Assembly (NCBI RefSeq): GCF_003334765.1
Contig: NZ_QOWT01000005.1
DNA: 64,000 nucleotides
Origin: Escherichia coli
Lineage (GTDB): Bacteria > Pseudomonadota > Gammaproteobacteria > Enterobacterales > Enterobacteriaceae
Reading direction: 5' to 3' (one strand)
Below, in pieces: positions 1-11,522 of this stretch; positions within the stretch are counted from its first letter, which is position 1, and every line of letters begins with the position of its first letter. The notes under the pieces are model-generated. The model was not told where the DNA came from, did not search any database, and saw only the letters and a list, made by a program, of their open reading frames with translations. Both the position numbers and the translations under genes were made by a program.

Positions 1-339
1 ACGTGAACCGCCAGAGCCGTAAGGGCCGGGCCACATATCGTATCCGGCTTTGGTAGAGATAATCAGTTCATCGCGATAAGCGGCAAAATCCTCGCGCAGC
101 AGGCGACCAAAGTTCTCTTCTGCGCTTCCTGGAGGCGGCCCGTAATTGTTGGCTAAATCAAAGTGCGTAATGCCTAAATCAAACGCTTTACGCAGGATCG
201 CACGCTGTGATTCCAGCGCGTTAACGTGACCGAAATTGTGCCATAAACCGAGCGATAACGCGGGCAGGCGTAAACCACTTTTTCCGCAATAGCGGTACTG
301 CATCTGCCCGTAACGTTCGGGATTCGCTAACCAGACCAT
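1..339 (-). CDS. yghZ: Aldo-keto reductase (YghZ/Gpr-like), N-terminal 113 codons; 3' end lies beyond window start
   Basis: Reverse-strand translation from ATG (rc of 337-339) reads MVWLANPERYGQMQYRYCGKSGLRLPALSLGLWHNFG..., typical AKR N-terminus; frame continues to position 1. Confidence 0.75.
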   Translation of the reverse strand, partial: MVWLANPERYGQMQYRYCGKSGLRLPALSLGLWHNFGHVNALESQRAILRKAFDLGITHFDLANNYGPPPGSAEENFGRLLREDFAAYRDELIISTKAGYDMWPGPYGSGGSR

Positions 340-491
340 GACCTCTCCTTTCCACCGTTCAATTTCGAAACAATGTTTTTAGTTTAGCGATTCGCCTGCG
401 CGTATCCCGTAGTCTGGCTCACAGAGTGACGAAAAACTGGGCAAAAACACGTGCTTATGCTTTGCTTAAAAAACACCAACTGAGGAGTGCA

Positions 492-1382
492 ATGATGCCG
501 CGTTTAACCGCCAAAGATTTCCCACAAGAGTTGCTGGATTACTACGACTATTACGCTCACGGGAAAATCTCGAAACGTGAGTTCCTCAACCTTGCGGCGA
601 AGTATGCGGTGGGCGGGATGACGGCATTAGCGTTGTTTGATTTGCTCAAGCCAAATTATGCGCTGGCGACTCAGGTAGAGTTTACCGACCCGGAGATTGT
701 TGCTGAGTACATCACGTATCCTTCACCAAATGGTCACGGCGAGGTACGGGGTTATCTGGTGAAACCCGCAAAAATGAGCGGCAAAACGCCAGCCGTGGTG
801 GTGGTGCATGAGAATCGTGGACTGAATCCGTATATCGAAGATGTGGCACGGCGAGTAGCGAAGGCGGGGTATATCGCCCTGGCACCTGACGGCTTAAGTT
901 CCGTTGGAGGTTATCCGGGTAATGACGATAAAGGTCGTGAGCTGCAACAGCAGATTGATCCAACCAAACTGATGAATGATTTCTTTGCCGCAATTGAGTT
1001 TATGCAACGCTATCCGCAAGCGACAGGCAAAGCGGGTATTACCGGATTTTGCTATGGCGGTGGTGTATCGAACGCGGCGGCTGTCGCGTATCCGGAACTG
1101 GCCTGCGCGGTGCCGTTTTATGGTCGACAGGCACCCACCGCCGATGTGGCGAAGATTGAAGCGCCTTTACTACTCCACTACGCGGAACTGGACACCCGAA
1201 TCAACGAGGGCTGGCCTGCTTACGAGGCGGCGTTGAAAGCCAATAATAAGGTCTATGAGGCGTATATCTATCCGGGGGTTAATCACGGATTCCATAATGA
1301 TTCCACGCCCCGTTATGACAAATCTGCCGCCGATCTTGCCTGGCAAAGGACGCTGAAATGGTTCGATAAATATCTCTCCTGA
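492..1382 (+). CDS. yghX: Dienelactone hydrolase family protein (YghX-like), apparently intact
   Basis: ORF 426..1382; RBS GAGGAG at 483-488 precedes ATG at 492/495; alpha/beta hydrolase features (FCYGGG nucleophile region, HGFHN near C-terminus). Start codon choice uncertain. Confidence 0.75.
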   Translation: MMPRLTAKDFPQELLDYYDYYAHGKISKREFLNLAAKYAVGGMTALALFDLLKPNYALATQVEFTDPEIVAEYITYPSPNGHGEVRGYLVKPAKMSGKTPAVVVVHENRGLNPYIEDVARRVAKAGYIALAPDGLSSVGGYPGNDDKGRELQQQIDPTKLMNDFFAAIEFMQRYPQATGKAGITGFCYGGGVSNAAAVAYPELACAVPFYGRQAPTADVAKIEAPLLLHYAELDTRINEGWPAYEAALKANNKVYEAYIYPGVNHGFHNDSTPRYDKSAADLAWQRTLKWFDKYLS

Positions 1383-1500
1383 TAGGTTTATCTCTTACGG
1401 GATTACGTCTTAAACAAGCATGAAAAAATAGCGTGCGCAAAAGTCGTTCTTTGCCTAAAATATCGCTATATATGACAATATATAGCGAATGAGGTGAACG

Positions 1501-1788
1501 ATGAATAACCATTTTGGTAAAGGCTTAATGGCGGGATTAAAAGCAACGCATGCCGACAGTGCGGTTAATGTGACAAAATTCTGTGCCGATTATAAACGCG
1601 GTTTTGTATTAGGCTACTCACACCGGATGTACGAAAAGACCGGAGATCGCCAGCTTAGCGCCTGGGAAGCGGGTATTCTGACGCGCCGTTATGGACTGGA
1701 TAAAGAGATGGTAATGGATTTCTTTCGTGAGAATAATTCCTGTTCTACGTTGCGCTTTTTTATGGCCGGTTATCGCCTAGAAAATTGA
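1501..1788 (+). CDS. yghW: Small conserved protein of unknown function upstream of hyb operon
   Basis: 95-aa ORF with the syntenic position of yghW between yghX and hybO. Confidence 0.7.
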
Positions 1789-1976
1789 TCAAACATACGT
1801 ATTATCTTGCTTTAATTAATTACACTAATGCTTCTTCCCTTCGTTTTAGTGCCCCGCCGCAGTATCATGATATCGATAACCATAATAAATGTGTGGTAAA
1901 TGGCGCATCGATCGCATTATTGATTTTGCGATTGAGGCAAAATATATGCCAGGTCTTCGCAACGGAATAACTATAA

Positions 1977-3095
1977 ATGACTGGAGATAACACCCTCATC
2001 CATTCTCACGGCATTAACCGTCGTGATTTCATGAAGCTTTGTGCAGCATTAGCCGCCACCATGGGGTTAAGTAGCAAAGCCGCTGCAGAGATGGCCGAAT
2101 CGGTTACTAACCCGCAGCGTCCGCCAGTTATCTGGATTGGCGCGCAGGAGTGCACCGGTTGTACGGAATCTCTGCTTCGTGCAACGCATCCAACGGTAGA
2201 AAACCTCGTGCTGGAGACTATCTCTCTGGAGTATCACGAAGTGCTTTCCGCCGCCTTCGGTCATCAGGTCGAAGAGAACAAACATAACGCTCTCGAGAAG
2301 TACAAAGGGCAGTATGTGTTAGTGGTGGATGGTTCCATCCCATTAAAAGATAATGGTATTTATTGCATGGTTGCCGGTGAGCCGATTGTGGATCACATCC
2401 GCAAAGCGGCGGAAGGCGCAGCAGCCATTATCGCTATCGGTTCCTGCTCTGCGTGGGGCGGTGTTGCCGCAGCTGGAGTTAACCCAACCGGCGCAGTCAG
2501 CCTGCAAGAAGTTCTGCCGGGCAAAACTGTAATCAACATTCCTGGCTGCCCGCCGAACCCGCACAACTTCCTCGCGACCGTTGCGCACATCATCACTTAC
2601 GGCAAGCCGCCGAAACTGGATGACAAAAACCGTCCGACCTTCGCCTATGGCCGTCTGATTCACGAACACTGCGAACGTCGCCCGCACTTCGATGCTGGTC
2701 GTTTTGCCAAAGAGTTCGGTGATGAAGGCCACCGCGAAGGCTGGTGCCTGTACCACCTCGGCTGTAAAGGGCCAGAAACTTACGGCAACTGCTCAACGCT
2801 GCAATTCTGCGATGTTGGCGGTGTGTGGCCGGTGGCGATTGGTCACCCGTGCTATGGCTGTAACGAAGAAGGTATCGGCTTCCATAAAGGCATCCATCAG
2901 CTTGCCAACGTCGAAAACCAGACTCCGCGTTCACAGAAACCGGATGTTAACGCTAAAGAAGGCGGCAACGTCTCGGCAGGCGCTATTGGTTTGCTCGGCG
3001 GTGTGGTTGGGCTGGTTGCCGGTGTCAGCGTGATGGCGGTGCGTGAACTGGGTCGTCAGCAAAAGAAAGATAACGCTGACTCACGGGGAGAATAA
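1977..3095 (+). CDS. hybO: Hydrogenase 2 small subunit, Tat-exported [NiFe] hydrogenase
   Basis: 372 aa; twin-arginine signal ([15 protein letters not shown]); multiple Cys clusters typical of NiFe hydrogenase small subunit. Confidence 0.95.
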
Positions 3096-3097
3096 CC

Positions 3098-4084
3098 GTG
3101 AACAGACGTAATTTTATTAAAGCAGCCTCCTGCGGGGCATTGCTGACGGGCGCGCTGCCGTCTGTCAGTCATGCGGCTGCTGAAAACCGCCCGCCAATTC
3201 CGGGATCGCTGGGGATGTTGTACGACTCGACCTTGTGCGTTGGCTGCCAGGCGTGCGTCACCAAGTGTCAGGATATCAATTTCCCTGAACGTAACCCGCA
3301 AGGGGAACAGACCTGGTCGAACAACGACAAACTGTCGCCGTACACCAATAACATCATTCAGGTGTGGACCAGCGGCACAGGGGTCAACAAAGACCAGGAG
3401 GAGAACGGCTACGCGTACATTAAGAAACAGTGTATGCACTGCGTCGATCCGAACTGTGTCTCTGTGTGCCCGGTCTCTGCACTGAAAAAAGATCCGAAAA
3501 CCGGCATTGTCCATTACGACAAAGACGTGTGCACCGGTTGCCGTTACTGCATGGTTGCCTGTCCGTACAACGTGCCGAAGTACGACTACAACAACCCGTT
3601 TGGTGCGCTGCATAAGTGCGAGCTGTGCAACCAGAAAGGTGTGGAACGTCTCGATAAAGGCGGTCTGCCTGGCTGCGTAGAAGTGTGCCCGGCGGGCGCG
3701 GTGATTTTTGGTACGCGTGAAGAGCTGATGGCGGAGGCGAAAAAACGTCTGGCGCTGAAGCCGGGCAGCGAATACCACTATCCGCGTCAGACGCTGAAAT
3801 CTGGCGACACTTACCTGCATACGGTGCCGAAATATTATCCGCATCTGTACGGCGAGAAAGAGGGCGGCGGTACTCAGGTTCTGGTACTGACGGGTGTGCC
3901 TTATGAAAATCTCGACCTGCCGAAACTGGACGATCTTTCTACTGGTGCGCGTTCCGAAAATATTCAACACACCTTGTATAAAGGCATGATGCTACCACTG
4001 GCTGTGCTGGCGGGCTTAACCGTGCTGGTTCGTCGCAACACTAAAAACGACCATCACGACGGAGGAGACGATCATGAGTCATGA
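3098..4084 (+). CDS. hybA: Hydrogenase 2 4Fe-4S ferredoxin-type component
   Basis: 328 aa, GTG start; RRNFIKAAS Tat motif; four CxxCxxCxxxCP ferredoxin motifs. Confidence 0.95.
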
Positions 4085-5252
4085 TCCACAACCGCTGGGC
4101 GGCAAAATCATCAGTAAACCGGTCATGATTTTTGGACCGTTAATCGTCATCTGTATGCTCCTGATTGTGAAGCGTCTGGTGTTCGGTCTGGGCTCTGTCT
4201 CCGACCTGAACGGCGGCTTCCCGTGGGGCGTGTGGATCGCGTTTGACCTGCTGATCGGTACCGGCTTTGCCTGTGGCGGCTGGGCGCTGGCGTGGGCAGT
4301 ATACGTCTTTAACCGTGGGCAATACCATCCGCTGGTGCGTCCGGCGCTGTTGGCGAGTCTGTTCGGTTACTCCTTGGGTGGCTTGTCGATCACCATCGAC
4401 GTGGGTCGCTACTGGAACCTGCCGTACTTCTACATTCCGGGTCACTTCAACGTGAACTCGGTACTGTTCGAGACGGCGGTCTGTATGACCATCTATATCG
4501 GCGTGATGGCACTGGAGTTTGCTCCGGCACTGTTTGAACGTCTGGGCTGGAAGGTGTCGCTACAGCGTCTGAACAAGGTGATGTTCTTCATCATTGCACT
4601 TGGCGCGCTGCTGCCGACCATGCACCAGTCTTCAATGGGGTCGCTGATGATCTCGGCGGGCTACAAGGTGCATCCGCTGTGGCAAAGCTATGAAATGTTG
4701 CCGCTGTTCTCGCTGCTGACGGCGTTCATCATGGGCTTCTCAATTGTCATCTTTGAAGGTTCGCTGGTGCAGGCGGGTCTGCGTGGCAACGGTCCGGATG
4801 AAAAGAGTCTGTTCGTTAAGCTGACCAACACCATCAGTGTGTTGCTGGCGATTTTCATCGTGCTGCGCTTTGGCGAGCTTATCTATCGCGACAAGCTGTC
4901 GTTAGCGTTTGCCGGTGACTTCTACTCCGTGATGTTCTGGATTGAAGTCCTGCTGATGCTCTTCCCGCTGGTCGTTCTGCGTGTGGCGAAGTTGCGTAAT
5001 GATTCCCGCATGCTGTTCCTGTCAGCACTGAGCGCGCTGTTAGGTTGTGCAACCTGGCGTCTGACCTATTCGCTGGTGGCATTCAACCCGGGCGGCGGTT
5101 ACGCCTACTTCCCGACCTGGGAAGAACTGTTGATTTCTATTGGTTTTGTGGCTATTGAGATTTGCGCTTACATCGTACTCATTCGTCTACTGCCGATACT
5201 TCCTCCTTTAAAACAAAACGATCATAATCGTCATGAGGCGAGCAAAGCATGA
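4074..5252 (+). CDS. hybB: Hydrogenase 2 integral membrane subunit (NrfD/PsrC family)
   Basis: 392 aa polytopic membrane protein; overlaps hybA stop by 11 nt (translational coupling). Confidence 0.95.
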
Positions 5253-6952
5253 GCCAGAGAATTACTATTGATCCGGTAACCCGTATTGAGGGGCATTTAC
5301 GCATCGATTGCGAAATCGAAAATGGCGTCGTTTCGAAAGCATGGGCTTCCGGTACCATGTGGCGCGGCATGGAAGAGATCGTGAAAAACCGCGATCCGCG
5401 CGATGCATGGATGATTGTGCAACGTATCTGTGGCGTATGTACGACTACTCACGCGCTGTCTTCCGTTCGTGCGGCAGAAAGTGCACTGAATATCGACGTT
5501 CCGGTTAACGCGCAATACATCCGTAACATCATTCTGGCTGCGCACACCACGCATGACCATATCGTTCATTTCTATCAGCTCTCGGCGCTGGACTGGGTGG
5601 ACATCACTTCTGCACTGCAAGCTGACCCAACCAAAGCCTCCGAAATGCTGAAAGGTGTTTCGACCTGGCACCTGAACAGCCCGGAAGAGTTCACCAAAGT
5701 TCAGAACAAGATCAAAGATCTGGTTGCCAGCGGTCAGTTGGGTATTTTCGCCAATGGCTACTGGGGTCACCCGGCGATGAAACTGCCGCCGGAAGTGAAC
5801 CTGATTGCGGTAGCGCACTACCTGCAGGCGCTGGAGTGCCAGCGTGACGCTAACCGCGTCGTGGCGCTGCTGGGCGGTAAAACGCCGCACATTCAGAACC
5901 TGGCGGTAGGTGGGGTCGCTAACCCAATCAACCTCGACGGTCTGGGCGTGCTGAACCTTGAGCGCCTGATGTACATCAAGTCTTTCATCGATAAACTGAG
6001 CGACTTTGTTGAGCAGGTTTACAAGGTTGATACCGCGGTTATCGCCGCGTTCTACCCGGAATGGCTGACGCGTGGTAAAGGTGCGGTGAACTACCTGAGC
6101 GTGCCGGAATTCCCGACCGACAGCAAAAACGGCAGCTTCCTGTTCCCGGGCGGCTACATTGAGAATGCGGATCTGTCCTCGTATCGCCCGATCACTTCCC
6201 ACTCCGATGAATACCTGATTAAAGGCATTCAGGAGAGCGCGAAGCACTCCTGGTATAAAGACGAAGCGCCGCAGGCACCGTGGGAAGGTACCACCATTCC
6301 GGCTTATGATGGTTGGTCTGACGACGGTAAATACTCCTGGGTGAAATCACCGACTTTCTACGGCAAAACGGTAGAAGTGGGTCCGCTGGCTAACATGCTG
6401 GTGAAACTGGCGGCAGGACGCGAGTCTACCCAGAACAAACTGAATGAAATCGTTGCGATTTATCAGAAACTGACTGGCAACACGCTGGAAGTGGCGCAGC
6501 TGCACTCCACGCTGGGCCGTATTATTGGTCGTACCGTTCACTGCTGTGAATTGCAGGATATCCTGCAAAATCAATACAGTGCACTGATCACCAATATCGG
6601 CAAAGGCGATCACACCACCTTTGTGAAGCCGAACATTCCGGCAACGGGTGAGTTCAAAGGCGTAGGTTTCCTCGAAGCACCGCGCGGTATGCTCTCTCAC
6701 TGGATGGTTATTAAAGACGGTATCATCAGCAACTACCAGGCGGTTGTTCCATCAACCTGGAACTCTGGTCCGCGTAACTTCAATGATGACGTCGGTCCTT
6801 ACGAGCAGTCGCTGGTGGGTACACCGGTTGCCGATCCGAATAAACCGCTGGAAGTGGTGCGTACCATTCACTCCTTCGACCCGTGCATGGCCTGTGCGGT
6901 ACACGTAGTGGATGCCGACGGCAACGAAGTGGTTTCAGTGAAGGTTCTGTAA
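5249..6952 (+). CDS. hybC: Hydrogenase 2 large subunit ([NiFe] catalytic subunit)
   Basis: 567 aa; N-terminal RICGVCTTTH and C-terminal DPCMACAVH nickel-binding motifs followed by a short cleavable extension. Confidence 0.97.
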   Translation: MSQRITIDPVTRIEGHLRIDCEIENGVVSKAWASGTMWRGMEEIVKNRDPRDAWMIVQRICGVCTTTHALSSVRAAESALNIDVPVNAQYIRNIILAAHTTHDHIVHFYQLSALDWVDITSALQADPTKASEMLKGVSTWHLNSPEEFTKVQNKIKDLVASGQLGIFANGYWGHPAMKLPPEVNLIAVAHYLQALECQRDANRVVALLGGKTPHIQNLAVGGVANPINLDGLGVLNLERLMYIKSFIDKLSDFVEQVYKVDTAVIAAFYPEWLTRGKGAVNYLSVPEFPTDSKNGSFLFPGGYIENADLSSYRPITSHSDEYLIKGIQESAKHSWYKDEAPQAPWEGTTIPAYDGWSDDGKYSWVKSPTFYGKTVEVGPLANMLVKLAAGRESTQNKLNEIVAIYQKLTGNTLEVAQLHSTLGRIIGRTVHCCELQDILQNQYSALITNIGKGDHTTFVKPNIPATGEFKGVGFLEAPRGMLSHWMVIKDGIISNYQAVVPSTWNSGPRNFNDDVGPYEQSLVGTPVADPNKPLEVVRTIHSFDPCMACAVHVVDADGNEVVSVKVL

Positions 6953-7446
6953 TGCGTATTTTAGTCTTAGGGGTCGGCAATATTTTGCTGACCGATGAAG
7001 CCATCGGTGTGCGGATTGTTGAAGCGTTAGAGCAACGATACATTCTGCCGGATTATGTTGAGATCCTCGATGGCGGCACGGCGGGAATGGAGCTGCTTGG
7101 CGACATGGCAAATCGCGATCATCTGATTATTGCGGATGCCATTGTGTCGAAAAAGAACGCGCCGGGAACGATGATGATCCTGCGGGATGAAGAAGTTCCG
7201 GCGTTGTTTACCAACAAAATCTCTCCGCATCAGCTTGGCCTGGCCGACGTATTGTCGGCCCTGCGCTTCACCGGCGAGTTTCCGAAAAAGCTGACCCTGG
7301 TCGGCGTGATCCCGGAATCGCTGGAGCCGCACATCGGCTTAACGCCGACGGTCGAAGCGATGATTGAACCTGCGCTTGAGCAGGTTCTGGCTGCGCTGCG
7401 CGAATCTGGCGTGGAAGCCATCCCACGGGAGGCGATTCATGACTGA
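6952..7446 (+). CDS. hybD: Hydrogenase 2 maturation endopeptidase
   Basis: 164 aa, MRILVLGVGNILLTDEAIG N-terminus typical of HybD/HycI proteases; ATG overlaps hybC TAA (TAATG). Confidence 0.9.
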   Translation: MRILVLGVGNILLTDEAIGVRIVEALEQRYILPDYVEILDGGTAGMELLGDMANRDHLIIADAIVSKKNAPGTMMILRDEEVPALFTNKISPHQLGLADVLSALRFTGEFPKKLTLVGVIPESLEPHIGLTPTVEAMIEPALEQVLAALRESGVEAIPREAIHD

Positions 7447-7927
7447 AGAGATAACAGGTTTCCAGACCTCCCCGAAGGCGCAAGTACAGGCAGCGTTTGA
7501 AGAAATTGCCCGGCGTTCGATGCACGATCTCTCTTTTCTGCATCCTTCAATGCCGGTGTATGTTTCTGACTTTACGCTGTTCGAAGGTCAGTGGACGGGG
7601 TGTGTGATCACCCCGTGGATGCTGAGTGCAGTTATCTTCCCCGGCCCGGATCAACTCTGGCCGCTGCGCAAAGTGAGTGAAAAAATTGGTCTGCAACTGC
7701 CGTATGGCACTATGACCTTTACTGTTGGTGAACTGGACGGTGTTTCGCAATACCTCTCCTGCTCGCTGATGTCGCCGCTTTCGCACAGCATGTCGATTGA
7801 AGAGGGCCAACGGCTGACGGATGACTGCGCCCGAATGATCCTTTCGCTGCCAGTCAGCAATCCGGATGTACCACACGCAGGGCGTCGTGCCCTGCTATTT
7901 GGCCGCAGGAGTGGCGAAAATGCATGA
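7439..7927 (+). CDS. hybE: Hydrogenase 2-specific chaperone
   Basis: 162-aa ORF starting MTEEITGFQ, overlapping hybD end; operon position. Confidence 0.85.
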   Translation: MTEEITGFQTSPKAQVQAAFEEIARRSMHDLSFLHPSMPVYVSDFTLFEGQWTGCVITPWMLSAVIFPGPDQLWPLRKVSEKIGLQLPYGTMTFTVGELDGVSQYLSCSLMSPLSHSMSIEEGQRLTDDCARMILSLPVSNPDVPHAGRRALLFGRRSGENA

Positions 7928-8261
7928 GTTGTCGCTTTGCCAGAGCGCCGTTGAAATTATCCAACGGCAGGCGGAGCAGCACGATGTTAAGCGCGTCACC
8001 GCCGTGTGGCTGGAAATTGGTGCACTCTCCTGCGTTGAGGAGAGCGCCGTCCGTTTTAGTTTTGAAATTGTCTGCCACGGAACGGTGGCGCAAGGGTGCG
8101 ATTTACATATCGTCTATAAACCCGCCCAGGCCTGGTGCTGGGATTGCAGCCAGGTGGTGGAGATTCATCAGCACGATGCGCAGTGTCCGCTCTGTCATGG
8201 CGAGCGGTTGCGTGTCGATACCGGCGATTCGCTGATCGTCAAAAGTATTGAAGTTGAATAA
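7920..8261 (+). CDS. hybF: Hydrogenase nickel incorporation protein (HypA paralogue)
   Basis: 113 aa starting MHELSLCQSAVEII; CxxC...CxxC zinc motif (CWDCS...CPLCHG). Confidence 0.9.
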   Translation: MHELSLCQSAVEIIQRQAEQHDVKRVTAVWLEIGALSCVEESAVRFSFEIVCHGTVAQGCDLHIVYKPAQAWCWDCSQVVEIHQHDAQCPLCHGERLRVDTGDSLIVKSIEVE

Positions 8262-8273
8262 CTGGAGTTAACA

Positions 8274-8522
8274 ATGTGTATTGGCGTTCCAGGCCAGGTG
8301 CTGGCTGTCGGTGAAGATATTCACCAGCTTGCGCAGGTTGAAGTATGTGGTATCAAGCGCGACGTGAATATCGCCCTGATTTGTGAAGGTAACCCTGCCG
8401 ATCTGCTGGGCCAGTGGGTACTGGTACACGTCGGATTTGCCATGAGCATTATCGATGAAGACGAAGCCAAAGCCACATTAGACGCACTGCGCCAAATGGA
8501 TTACGACATTACCAGCGGGTGA
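8274..8522 (+). CDS. hybG: Hydrogenase maturation factor (HypC paralogue)
   Basis: 82 aa starting MCIGVPGQV (conserved N-terminal Cys2 of HypC family). Confidence 0.9.
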
Positions 8523-8530
8523 TGATTAAA

Positions 8531-8566
8531 GCCGGATGCGGCGTAAATGCTTTATCCGGCTACATA
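8531..8566. repeat. REP (repetitive extragenic palindromic) element
   Basis: GCCGGATGCGGCGTAAATGCTTTATCCGGCTAC matches the enterobacterial REP consensus; lies between convergent hybG and yghU. Confidence 0.6.
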
Positions 8567-8591
8567 GCGATAAGCCTGCCAATGTTGCGAC

Positions 8592-9458
8592 TTACCCCTG
8601 ACGCTTATCTTCCGTATTCGTCTCGAAATCACTGGCGTCATGGCGCTCATGCAACTGCTCGTTCAGCGGCCCGTTGGTGCGGTTAACAATACGCCCACGC
8701 TTCACCGCCGGACGTTCGCCCACTTCTTTCGCCCAGCGTTGTACGTGTTTATAACTTTCCGCATCAAGAAACTCTGCGGCATCATACACGCCGCCTAACA
8801 CCACGTTGCCAAACCACGGCCAGATCGCCATATCCGCAATGGTGTACTCATCGCCCGCAACAAACTTGTGCTGCGCCAGTTGCTTATCCAGCACGTCGAG
8901 CAGGCGCTTGGCTTCCATGGTAAAGCGGTTGATGGCGTACTCAATTTTCACCGGCGCGTAATGGTAAAAGTGACCAAAACCACCGCCGAGGAACGGTGCC
9001 GCGCCCTGTAACCAGAACAGCCAGTTCAGCGTTTCAGTCCGTTTTGCCAGATCCTGCGGCAGGAAGTAGCCAAATTTCTCCGCCAGATAAAGCAGAATCG
9101 ATCCAGACTCAAACACGCGGATCGGTGGATTATGGGTATGGTCGCGCAATGCCGGGATCTTCGAGTTTGGGTTCACTTCGACAAAGCCGCTGGAGAATTG
9201 ATCGCCATCGCCAATACGAATCAGCCAGGCGTCATACTCTGCACCAGTAACACCCAGCGCCAGCAGCTCCTCAAGCATAATCGTTACTTTCTGTCCGTTT
9301 GGCGTTCCCAGCGAATAGAGTTGCAGCGGATGTTTGCCCACCGGCAGCGTTTTTTCATGCGTCGGACCAGAAACCGGGCGATTGATATTGGCGAACGCGC
9401 CGCCAGCGGATTTATCCCACGTCCAGACTTTCGCGGGCTGATAAGTATTGTCTGTCAT
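8592..9458 (-). CDS. yghU: Glutathione S-transferase-like protein (disulfide reductase)
   Basis: 288 aa from MTDNTYQPAKVWTWDK; GST N/C domains; synteny. Confidence 0.85.
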   Translation of the reverse strand: MTDNTYQPAKVWTWDKSAGGAFANINRPVSGPTHEKTLPVGKHPLQLYSLGTPNGQKVTIMLEELLALGVTGAEYDAWLIRIGDGDQFSSGFVEVNPNSKIPALRDHTHNPPIRVFESGSILLYLAEKFGYFLPQDLAKRTETLNWLFWLQGAAPFLGGGFGHFYHYAPVKIEYAINRFTMEAKRLLDVLDKQLAQHKFVAGDEYTIADMAIWPWFGNVVLGGVYDAAEFLDAESYKHVQRWAKEVGERPAVKRGRIVNRTNGPLNEQLHERHDASDFETNTEDKRQG

Positions 9459-9662
9459 AGTGAGTTGCCTTCTGAGTGGTAGTGTTGAAGCAGTGTAGCA
9501 GGTCACTTGCTGTACAGAATGTGAATTTTTTAACCCTTTGCGCCAGCCGCTGCGTTGAGGTGTATGATAAGTCAGACCTCTGTCCGGTTAATGTCGCTGA
9601 GCAGGTAATCAGAGCACAACAATTACGCCAACTGCTTAGGTTGTATTGTTAAAGGTAAAGTG

Positions 9663-11522
9663 ATGAGCAAAGGAACGACCAGCCAGGATGCCCCGTTCGG
9701 GACATTATTGGGCTACGCCCCAGGTGGGGTAGCAATCTACTCTTCAGATTACAGTTCTCTCGATCCGCAGGAATACGAAGATGACGCCGTATTCCGTAGC
9801 TATATCGACGATGAATATATGGGCCACAAATGGCAATGCGTTGAATTTGCTCGCCGTTTTCTCTTTCTGAATTACGGTGTGGTCTTCACTGACGTGGGTA
9901 TGGCGTGGGAGATTTTCTCGCTGCGCTTCCTGCGTGAAGTGGTTAATGACAACATCCTGCCATTGCAGGCATTTCCTAATGGCTCGCCGCGTGCACCGGT
10001 CGCGGGCGCGCTTCTTATCTGGGATAAAGGCGGTGAATTTAAAGACACTGGCCATGTCGCCATCATTACTCAATTGCATGGCAACAAAGTCCGTATTGCG
10101 GAACAGAACGTGATTCATTCCCCGTTGCCGCAAGGGCAACAGTGGACACGCGAGCTGGAGATGGTGGTCGAAAACGGCTGCTATACCCTTAAAGACACGT
10201 TTGATGACACCACCATTCTGGGCTGGATGATCCAGACGGAAGATACCGACTACAGCTTACCGCAGCCGGAAATTGCAGGCGAGCTGCTGAAAATCAGCGG
10301 AGCGCGTCTGGAAAACAAAGGTCAGTTTGACGGTAAATGGCTGGATGAAAAAGATCCGCTACAAAATGCCTACGTGCAGGCCAACGGTCAGGTGATCAAT
10401 CAGGATCCGTATCATTACTACACCATTACCGAGAGCGCAGAGCAGGAGCTGATTAAAGCCACCAACGAGCTGCACCTGATGTATCTTCACGCCACCGACA
10501 AGGTGCTAAAAGATGACAACCTGCTGGCGCTGTTCGACATTCCGAAAATCCTCTGGCCACGTTTGCGTCTCTCCTGGCAGCGTCGCCGTCACCATATGAT
10601 CACCGGTCGTATGGATTTCTGCATGGACGAACGTGGCCTGAAGGTCTACGAATACAACGCCGATTCCGCCTCCTGTCATACCGAAGCGGGCTTGATCCTC
10701 GAACGTTGGGCGGAGCAGGGCTATAAAGGCAACGGCTTCAATCCTGCGGAAGGGCTGATTAACGAACTGGCTGGTGCCTGGAAACACAGTCGTGCACGTC
10801 CGTTTGTCCATATCATGCAGGACAAAGATATCGAGGAAAACTATCACGCGCAGTTTATGGAGCAGGCGCTGCACCAGGCGGGCTTTGAAACGCGTATCTT
10901 GCGTGGGTTGGATGAACTGGGCTGGGATGCTGCCGGGCAACTGATTGATGGGGAAGGGCGACTGGTTAACTGCGTGTGGAAAACCTGGGCGTGGGAAACC
11001 GCGTTTGATCAGATTCGTGAAGTCAGCGACCGTGAGTTTGCTGCGGTGCCGATCCGTACCGGTCATCCGCAAAATGAAGTGCGTCTTATCGACGTATTGC
11101 TGCGCCCGGAAGTGCTGGTCTTTGAACCTCTGTGGACTGTGATCCCCGGCAACAAAGCGATTCTGCCGATCCTCTGGTCGCTGTTCCCGCACCATCGTTA
11201 CCTGCTGGATACCGATTTCACTGTTAATGATGAACTGGTAAAAACAGGTTACGCAGTGAAACCGATCGCCGGTCGCTGTGGCAGTAACATCGACCTCGTC
11301 AGCCATCATGAAGAGGTGCTGGACAAAACCAGCGGTAAATTTGCCGAGCAGAAAAACATCTATCAGCAACTGTGGTGTTTGCCGAAAGTGGACGGTAAAT
11401 ACATTCAGGTATGTACCTTCACCGTTGGCGGCAACTACGGTGGGACGTGTTTGCGCGGTGATGAATCACTGGTCATCAAAAAAGAGAGTGATATTGAACC
11501 GTTAATTGTGGTGAAAAAGTAA
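9663..11522 (+). CDS. gss: Bifunctional glutathionylspermidine synthetase/amidase
   Basis: 619 aa; N-terminal CHAP amidase domain and C-terminal ATP-grasp synthetase domain; synteny. Confidence 0.95.
   Translation: MSKGTTSQDAPFGTLLGYAPGGVAIYSSDYSSLDPQEYEDDAVFRSYIDDEYMGHKWQCVEFARRFLFLNYGVVFTDVGMAWEIFSLRFLREVVNDNILPLQAFPNGSPRAPVAGALLIWDKGGEFKDTGHVAIITQLHGNKVRIAEQNVIHSPLPQGQQWTRELEMVVENGCYTLKDTFDDTTILGWMIQTEDTDYSLPQPEIAGELLKISGARLENKGQFDGKWLDEKDPLQNAYVQANGQVINQDPYHYYTITESAEQELIKATNELHLMYLHATDKVLKDDNLLALFDIPKILWPRLRLSWQRRRHHMITGRMDFCMDERGLKVYEYNADSASCHTEAGLILERWAEQGYKGNGFNPAEGLINELAGAWKHSRARPFVHIMQDKDIEENYHAQFMEQALHQAGFETRILRGLDELGWDAAGQLIDGEGRLVNCVWKTWAWETAFDQIREVSDREFAAVPIRTGHPQNEVRLIDVLLRPEVLVFEPLWTVIPGNKAILPILWSLFPHHRYLLDTDFTVNDELVKTGYAVKPIAGRCGSNIDLVSHHEEVLDKTSGKFAEQKNIYQQLWCLPKVDGKYIQVCTFTVGGNYGGTCLRGDESLVIKKESDIEPLIVVKK

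Follow-up and report, generated by a model that had tools for sequence, protein, structure and literature searches.

Overlapping gene junctions in the hydrogenase-2 (hyb) operon of Escherichia coli are compatible with translational coupling

RESULTS

The hyb operon and its seven junctions

The window analysed here is a 64,000 nt stretch of E. coli DNA, in which positions 1977 to 8522 are the hybOABCDEFG (hydrogenase-2) operon, with eight co-directional genes according to the RefSeq annotation of the identical sequence and the reading of its open reading frames (ORFs). The operon lies between yghW and yghU/gss, as in E. coli. Across window positions 1-11000, strain B771 is 100% identical and most E. 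coli are 95-99% identical; the region is found in every one of 5,426 complete E. coli genomes, at a coverage of at least 80% in 5,385 of them. All eight products score above the curated NCBIfam cut-offs with full-length alignments; seven of the models are equivalogs (NF007779, NF008134, NF008133, NF007778, NF007777, NF007776 and NF007721), while the one for hybF (NF009046) is a subfamily model. The gene identities proposed by an earlier sequence-only reading were right. The genes are:

hybO, 1977..3095, + strand: hydrogenase 2 small subunit, 372 aa, the operon's first gene (NF007779, 1-372 to 1-372)
hybA, 3098..4084, + strand: Fe-S subunit, 328 aa, GTG start, +2 nt from the hybO stop (NF008134)
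hybB, 4074..5252, + strand: integral membrane subunit, 392 aa; 4074 is the ORF's first start codon (NF008133)
hybC, 5249..6952, + strand: hydrogenase 2 large subunit precursor, 567 aa (NF007778, 1-567 to 1-567)
hybD, 6952..7446, + strand: maturation endopeptidase, 164 aa (NF007777, 1-164 to 1-164)
hybE, 7439..7927, + strand: Hyd-2 assembly chaperone, 162 aa (NF007776, 1-162 to 1-162)
hybF, 7920..8261, + strand: HypA-type nickel metallochaperone, 113 aa, named hypA by PGAP (NF009046, 1-113 to 1-113)
hybG, 8274..8522, + strand: HypC-type chaperone, 82 aa, 12 nt from hybF (NF007721)

The literature takes hybOABCDEFG as a single operon (PMC5902676). Internal promoters and terminators were rejected as candidates, because promoter-like and terminator-like matches within the operon (3 and 13, versus 6.2 and 8.9 in shuffles) did not rise above expectation, a result that agrees with a single transcript but is no proof of one.

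The O/A and F/G junctions do not overlap (+2 and +12 nt). The other five have distances of -11 (A/B), -4 (B/C, ATGA), -1 (C/D, TAATG), -8 (D/E) and -8 (E/F), which agrees with the range of 1 to 11 nt given in the earlier reading:

hybA/hybB junction, 4061..4084, + strand: SD GGAGGAG 4061-4067, ATG 4074, hybA TGA 4082-4084; 11-nt overlap
hybB/hybC junction, 5235..5252, + strand: weak SD GAGG 5235-5238, ATGA 5249-5252; 4-nt overlap
hybC/hybD junction, 6940..6954, + strand: weak SD GAAGG 6940-6944, TAATG 6950-6954; 1-nt overlap at 6952
hybD/hybE junction, 7427..7446, + strand: SD GGGAGG 7427-7432, ATG 7439, TGA 7444-7446; 8-nt overlap
hybE/hybF junction, 7907..7927, + strand: SD AGGAG 7907-7911, ATGCATGA 7920-7927; 8-nt overlap

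An SD-like motif is found 6-11 nt 5′ of every hyb start, with duplex energies from -3.5 to -10.3 kcal/mol; in particular, the values are -9.5 (hybB), -5.6 (hybC), -3.5 (hybD), -10.3 (hybE) and -7.0 kcal/mol (hybF). The motif of hybB sits within the codons of the HybA C-terminal tail (..DGGDDHES, followed by the stop), that of hybD sits within the stretch that encodes the C-terminal extension of HybC, and the His2-Glu3 codons of hybF (CAT GAx) make up the hybE stop TGA. An alternative-frame ORF at 7924-8235 (103 aa), which begins at the second ATG of ATGCATGA and forms an ATGA with the hybE stop, was rejected as chance; Escherichia and a few Citrobacter keep it long, but elsewhere it shrinks to 6-54 codons.

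In local partition-function folding, hybO has the operon's most open predicted initiation region, with an unpaired probability of 0.68 (99th percentile), and hybC has the least accessible one (0.21, 2nd percentile). However, the 131-nt hybC junction is not folded better than its shuffles (z = +1.21; 180 of 200 shuffles were at least as stable), and an RNA structure that masks the hybC start was accordingly rejected.

Support for the annotated start codons

The overlaps could be annotation artefacts, with at least one true start lying further downstream. In that direction point an in-frame Met at HybB residue 18, the HybE structure (PDB 2KC5), which spans residues 1-162 but whose construct follows the annotation and is not independent of it, and a search for independent experimental N-termini of HybB and HybE that found none. 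The remaining evidence makes this explanation extremely improbable. In all eight proteins, residue 1 pairs with the first or second position of the NCBIfam profile. HybC is aligned over 1-567 with PDB 6EN9, and HybD aligns 1-160 to 1-160 with PDB 1CFZ. HybF must begin at its N-terminal MHE, whose first residue coincides with residue 1 of the HypA structures 3A43 and 6G81.

In 80 other species, belonging to 27 genus-level groups, the same starts and SD motifs are found again; start codon, SD and N-terminus were compared in 24 representative genera. The GTG start of hybA, its Tat motif NRR(N/D/H/Q)F and its GGGAG/GGAGG SD are kept in 24 of 24 genera; across these genera the HybC N-terminus MSQRITIDP is invariant, and the HybD N-terminus M-x-I/T-L-V/I-L-G-x-G-N is conserved, as are the ATG, SD and N-terminal PLGG motif of HybB, with synonymous variation in that frame. 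For hybB and hybE alike, the ATG, an SD 6-8 nt 5′ of it and the first ~10 residues are conserved between genera with synonymous changes in frame. Moreover, the hybE ATG and the N-terminus M-S/T-D/E-E-I-x-G-F/Y persist in genera where hybD ends earlier, leaving a gap of +1 or +2. Mis-assigned start codons, which the earlier reading had named as the way in which it could fail, are thus excluded by profile alignments, structures and conservation as far as sequence evidence goes.

Conservation of the junctions across genera

Junction distances were compared in 81 loci and across the 27 groups, where species counts are phylogenetically non-independent. The A/B overlap is found in 27 of 27 groups with a length of -8, -11, -14 or -17; its persistence while the length shifts indicates that the overlap as such is retained. 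All 27 groups also overlap at B/C, with a distance of -4 in 62 loci and of -23 in 18. At C/D, a distance of exactly -1 (TAATG or TGATG) is shared by 26 of the 27 groups and by 78 of the 81 loci. At E/F, 62 loci have a spacing of -8, and an overlap occurs in 22 of the 24 groups in which the two genes are adjacent; loci with CAC at HybF His2 lack the -8 hybE stop. The least conserved junction is D/E, which is -8 in 48 loci and spans -26 to +55 between genera, with an overlap in 18 of 27 groups and a gap in 9; gap lengths are approximate for Brenneria, Rahnella, Prodigiosinella, Edwardsiella and Buttiauxella, whose hybE start picks are unreliable (poorly conserved N-termini, some TTG). The overlap at D/E is therefore dispensable.

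The non-overlapping O/A junction has a gap of +2 or +3 in 80 of 81 loci. The F/G gap is +2 to +30 in 13 groups, and many other genera have a hybF-hybG spacing of ~1.1 kb; in the single locus examined, from Yersinia, the ~1.1-kb insert is hypB. A few outlying distances from automatic start and stop calls, in four loci (L026, +753 and +83; L028, +142; L065, -173; L071, -41), look like assembly frameshifts or extended tails and leave the conclusion unaffected.

Within one genome, the pattern is unremarkable. Among the other same-strand pairs in the window, 12 of 39 overlap (31%); at this rate, five overlaps in seven junctions have a binomial P of ~0.03, which becomes ~0.15 at a within-operon rate of 45% that was assumed rather than measured. 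Conservation across the 27 genus-level groups is a stronger sign of a non-accidental pattern than this one-genome count.

DISCUSSION

Plausible translational coupling at the hyb junctions

A standard hydrogenase-2 operon with packed overlaps, whose genes are co-expressed through coupling and whose products are not thereby fixed at equal amounts, is the explanation that we consider likely. Each of five successive downstream starts lies inside the end of the ORF before it or abuts that end, and has its SD in that ORF. In the proposed mechanism, a ribosome that terminates on the upstream ORF would then sit on or beside the downstream start, where it could reinitiate; alternatively, the terminating ribosome may keep the start site unfolded for a new 30S subunit. 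In either case, the outcome would be co-expression of the eight Hyb proteins from one mRNA.

Judged from sequence, coupling at the hyb junctions is plausible, and its strength probably varies by junction. It is likeliest at hybC and hybD because of their weak SDs and short overlaps (-4 with -5.6 kcal/mol and -1 with -3.5 kcal/mol), and these two genes should depend the most on upstream translation; hybB, hybE and hybF, with stronger SDs, could also initiate independently. Spacings from -8 to +10 have been treated as predictive of termination-reinitiation (PMC10666635). The B/C, C/D, D/E, E/F and O/A junctions are inside this range; A/B (-11) and F/G (+12) are just outside it, and the position of A/B counts against coupling there, as do the strong SDs of hybB and hybE, which would permit independent initiation. 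Also on the negative side are the dispensable overlap at D/E and the folding result, in which no significant structure masks the hybC start. A search of the literature for experiments that directly tested hyb coupling or measured subunit synthesis ratios found none. In the one paper that has both 'translational coupling' and 'hyb operon', the former is used loosely, for the plasmid co-expression of hypD and hybG.

A graded form of this mechanism may have a functionally telling case in hybD. The C-terminal extension of HybC is taken, from the biology of this family, to be the peptide that HybD removes. Its 15 residues are absent from the 552-residue mature chain in the PDB. The hybD gene has the weakest SD in the operon (-3.5 kcal/mol) together with a -1 overlap that 26 of the 27 groups retain. 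We tentatively raise the possibility, itself rather doubtful, that coupling is graded and junction-specific, with HybD synthesis left almost entirely to ribosomes that come directly from completing a HybC chain, and with hybB and hybE semi-independent. If true, the HybD protease would be placed beside its HybC substrate at a sub-stoichiometric level.

Alternative explanations

Overlaps may also arise neutrally, from genome compaction and stop-codon drift, with each gene initiated de novo at its own SD. Such an origin would fit the recognisable SD at every hyb junction (strong at hybB and hybE), the variable A/B overlap length, the wide D/E distances between genera, and the commonness of overlaps among other gene pairs in the window. 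It would also fit the bioBF pair, which has an ATGA overlap and is uncoupled in a dual-reporter assay (PMC6728339), a case that equally counts against our preferred explanation. However, four of the five native E. coli ATGA pairs in that assay were coupled, three strongly and one, menDH, by only ~60% (PMC6728339). Further, neutral spacing is hard to reconcile with an exact C/D distance of -1 in 26 of 27 groups and a B/C overlap in all 27, both of them with weak SDs. We therefore consider the neutral account unlikely. The earlier reading's claim of coupling stands to the extent that the overlap sizes are compatible with it (PMC10666635); as bioBF illustrates, an overlap is no guarantee.

That reading had gone further and taken the overlaps as consistent with a tight stoichiometric coupling between structural and maturation proteins. 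The efficiency of reinitiation usually stays below one and depends on the SD, so that ratios would be tuned rather than fixed at 1:1. Coupling links expression and secures co-expression; by itself, it sets no 1:1 ratio. In favour of enforced fixed-ratio synthesis, HybO, HybA, HybB and HybC form one complex (PMC5902676), and complex subunits are 4.5-fold enriched in short-distance pairs; Huber et al. suggested selection for stoichiometry (PMC10666635). However, HybC is reported to exceed HybO in anaerobically grown cells, where extra hybO by itself increased Hyd-2 about tenfold (PMC5902676). The O/A junction, which joins two subunits, has no overlap. At C/D, D/E and E/F, a subunit is linked to accessory proteins, and Huber et al. 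2023 score these junctions as 'CMPLX not' (no complex; PMC10666635). With bioBF uncoupled as well, tight stoichiometric coupling is unsupported, and fixed-ratio synthesis is highly unlikely. A 2025 review of the functional consequences of coupling does not contain the word 'stoichiometry'.

The importance of these observations is small, as they correctly describe a textbook operon whose overlaps a published genome-wide table already lists. Their practical use is in operon engineering: a deletion or tag in a hyb gene has to spare the SD and start of the next gene where these lie inside the upstream ORF, and a premature stop in hybB or hybC may have a polar effect on the translation of hybC or hybD. 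Gene overlap is not to be taken as evidence of fixed subunit ratios.

Comparison with known systems

The same genes, in the same order and with all seven distances the same, are found in the K-12 operon (b2997-b2990; Huber et al. 2023, Front Microbiol, Supplementary Table 2, PMC10666635); there is no relevant difference, the window being another strain. The overlaps are already known from that table, as the label 'known biology' in the earlier reading correctly had it, and are ordinary for compact bacterial operons. In E. coli, the commonest same-strand spacings are -4, -1 and -8, and 24% of 2,987 unidirectional pairs fall within -8 to +6 (PMC10666635).

The pairs hyfHI, astDB, ydbH/ynbE and menDH (Huber et al. 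2019, Nat Commun) resemble hybB/hybC in having a 4-nt ATGA overlap with the SD in the upstream ORF. Of these, hyfHI is the hydrogenase pair assayed in that study and, like hyb, encodes hydrogenase subunits. The four pairs were characterised with premature-stop reporters, whereas hyb is known here from sequence, and four of the five hyb overlaps (-11, -1, -8 and -8) differ from their -4 type. Within the same window, the gsp operon (type II secretion) is another multi-subunit operon with runs of overlaps: gspL/K/J/I/H has four consecutive -4 (ATGA) overlaps and gspF/E/D has two -1 overlaps. In contrast to gsp, where only the -4 and -1 classes occur, hyb additionally has overlaps of -8, -8 and -11.

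Organization of the hyb operon

The hybOABCDEFG operon, which encodes hydrogenase-2 (Hyd-2), lies within a region (window 1-11000) that is 100% identical to the chromosome of E. coli B771 and that is matched by 5,426 of 5,426 complete E. coli genomes at 95-100% identity. Gene coordinates were taken from the RefSeq annotation of the B771-identical sequence. Translation of the window yields a single ORF of the expected length for each of the eight genes, and all eight products exceed, at full length, the curated cut-offs of Hyd-2-specific NCBIfam models (seven equivalogs and, for hybF, a subfamily model).

Genes of the hyb operon (RefSeq annotation)
1977-3095 (+), hybO
3098-4084 (+), hybA, GTG start
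4074-5252 (+), hybB
5249-6952 (+), hybC
6952-7446 (+), hybD
7439-7927 (+), hybE
7920-8261 (+), hybF, labelled hypA by PGAP
8274-8522 (+), hybG

Junction distances were read straight off the window sequence, and conservation was counted in 27 genus-level groups from Enterobacterales and Aeromonas, which are phylogenetically non-independent.

Junction distances (nt; negative, overlap) and their conservation
hybO/hybA: +2; overlap in 0/27 groups, +2 or +3 in 80/81 loci
hybA/hybB: -11 (ATG 4074, TGA 4082-4084); 27/27 groups, -8, -11, -14 or -17
hybB/hybC: -4 (ATGA 5249-5252); 27/27 groups, -4 or -23
hybC/hybD: -1 (TAATG 6950-6954); 26/27 groups, exactly -1
hybD/hybE: -8 (ATG 7439, TGA 7444-7446); 18/27 groups, the rest gaps of +1 to ~+50
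hybE/hybF: -8 (ATGCATGA 7920-7927); 22/24 groups, mostly -8
hybF/hybG: +12

The overlaps of 1-11 nt that the sequence-only reading placed at the five junctions from hybA/hybB to hybE/hybF are borne out; the feature is real, correctly placed and ordinary.

Other features were observed elsewhere in the window.
~20730-24817 (-): genes annotated as fatty acyl-AMP ligase, NAD-dependent epimerase, acyl carrier protein and serine palmitoyltransferase (spt)
33870-34091 (-): Rfam C0719 sRNA, full-length match, 294 bits
53786-53824 (+): Rfam JUMPstart element, 58.5 bits
The four-gene lipid-synthesis cluster, unusual for E. coli, lies between yghO and yghS and adjoins lptF/lptG-like genes and a lipopolysaccharide biosynthesis gene. 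Beyond the gsp cluster, the JUMPstart element neighbours ABC-transporter, galE and glycosyltransferase genes that have the look of a capsule or polysaccharide locus. Identity of the window to B771 is complete up to 39224 and ~99% between there and 55261; positions 55261-64000 do not align, and the B771 counterpart carries an IS3 element and glycosyltransferases. Judged from this alignment, the right end is strain-variable.

Start codon assignment

Mis-assigned start codons, the error proposed as a refutation of the overlaps, are very unlikely given the structure alignments and the conservation of starts across genera. In particular, HybD (MRILVLGVGN) aligns over residues 1-160 with residues 1-160 of crystal structure 1CFZ, HybC residues 1-567 align with structure 6EN9, and the MHE motif that opens HybF matches the HypA structures of two distant organisms from residue 1 in each. 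The earliest start codon in the hybB ORF is 4074. For HybB and HybE, evidence on the N-termini was sought from other genomes: the hyb operon of 80 other species was compared, with the eight genes placed by tblastn and converted to gene models, and start-site conservation was judged on one representative from each of 24 genera. These representatives keep the start codon, an upstream Shine-Dalgarno (SD) motif at 6-11 nt and the first residues, and codons in the frame of the downstream gene vary synonymously around the starts; the N-termini of HybB (..PLGG), HybE (M-S/T-D/E-E-I-x-G-F/Y) and HybF (MHE) are conserved, and that of HybC is invariant. Moreover, an earlier hybD end in Leminorella, Budvicia and Limnobaculum leaves a gap of +1 or +2 before an unchanged hybE start, so that this start is confirmed even where there is no overlap.

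Sequence constraints at the junctions

In the HybA C-terminal tail, the Gly-Gly-Asp codons supply the hybB SD (GGAGGAG, 4061-4067), and the hybD SD (GAAGG, 6940-6944) lies within codons of the HybC C-terminal extension. At 7920-7927, the hybE stop TGA is built from the His2-Glu3 codons (CAT GAx) of the hybF MHE motif. Ignoring the kinship of loci, His2 is CAT in 66 of 70 loci, and the four comparison loci with CAC (L054, L060, L071 and L073) all lack the -8 junction; the choice of this codon may be constrained by the neighbouring hybE stop.

An alternative-frame ORF inside hybF (7924-8235, +, 103 aa) takes its start from the second ATG of ATGCATGA, which forms a canonical ATGA with the hybE stop. 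Outside Escherichia and a few Citrobacter, where it stays long, it shrinks to 6-54 codons, and it is therefore probably a chance ORF. Further, ~1.1 kb (0.9-1.4 kb) separates hybF from hybG in Yersinia L049 and ~25 other loci (Yersinia, Providencia, Budvicia, Limnobaculum, Leminorella, Brenneria, Rahnella, Serratia and Prodigiosinella); in L049, the sole spacer locus examined, hypB (NF007775) occupies 10199-11281 between them. Across the gene models, the adjacent hybF-hybG of E. coli is not universal.

Chance, coupling and stoichiometry

Within a single genome, the run of overlaps hardly exceeds chance. Overlaps occur in 12 of 39 other same-strand gene pairs of the window (31%), and at least five in seven junctions has P ~0.03 at p = 0.31 and P ~0.15 at an assumed within-operon rate of 0.45. 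Across the E. coli genome, the three most frequent spacings are -4, -1 and -8, and the interval -8 to +6 holds 24% of 2,987 unidirectional pairs (PMC10666635). The evolutionary pattern of the junctions is more telling than this test.

The best-supported reading, and a plausible one, is ordinary translational coupling along a single polycistronic mRNA, based on the architecture and on experiments with other E. coli pairs. A ribosome ending the upstream ORF would cover or abut the downstream start, where it could reinitiate or leave the site accessible to a new 30S subunit. [quoted passage not shown] Since SD duplex energies differ (hybE -10.3, hybB -9.5, hybF -7.0, hybC -5.6 and hybD -3.5 kcal/mol), reliance on upstream translation would be expected to be greatest for hybC and hybD and smallest for hybB and hybE. 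No significant fold emerged when the hybC start was tested for masking by RNA structure.

The further claim, that the overlaps reflect tight stoichiometric coupling of structural and maturation proteins, is not supported. Coupling ties expression together and sets no ratios, and stoichiometry goes unmentioned in a recent review of the functional effects of coupling. In anaerobically grown cells, HybC reportedly outnumbers HybO, and supplying hybO alone raises Hyd-2 ~tenfold above native levels (PMC5902676). Three of the five overlaps (hybC/hybD, hybD/hybE and hybE/hybF) pair an accessory protein with the preceding subunit or accessory protein, and Huber et al. scored these pairs as non-complex-forming (PMC10666635). 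The word 'stoichiometric' should be dropped from descriptions of the hyb overlaps.

Comparison with known operons

The same window carries a second run of the same kind at ~48570-52260 (+; coordinates +/-2), where, among the type II secretion genes, gspH-I-J-K-L are linked by four 4-nt (ATGA-type) overlaps in succession and gspD-E-F by two 1-nt overlaps. In K-12 (b2997-b2990), the seven hyb distances are tabulated in Supplementary Table 2 of Huber et al. 2023 (PMC10666635), and all seven are identical to those of the window; the overlaps were therefore already known, as the sequence-only reading had recorded.
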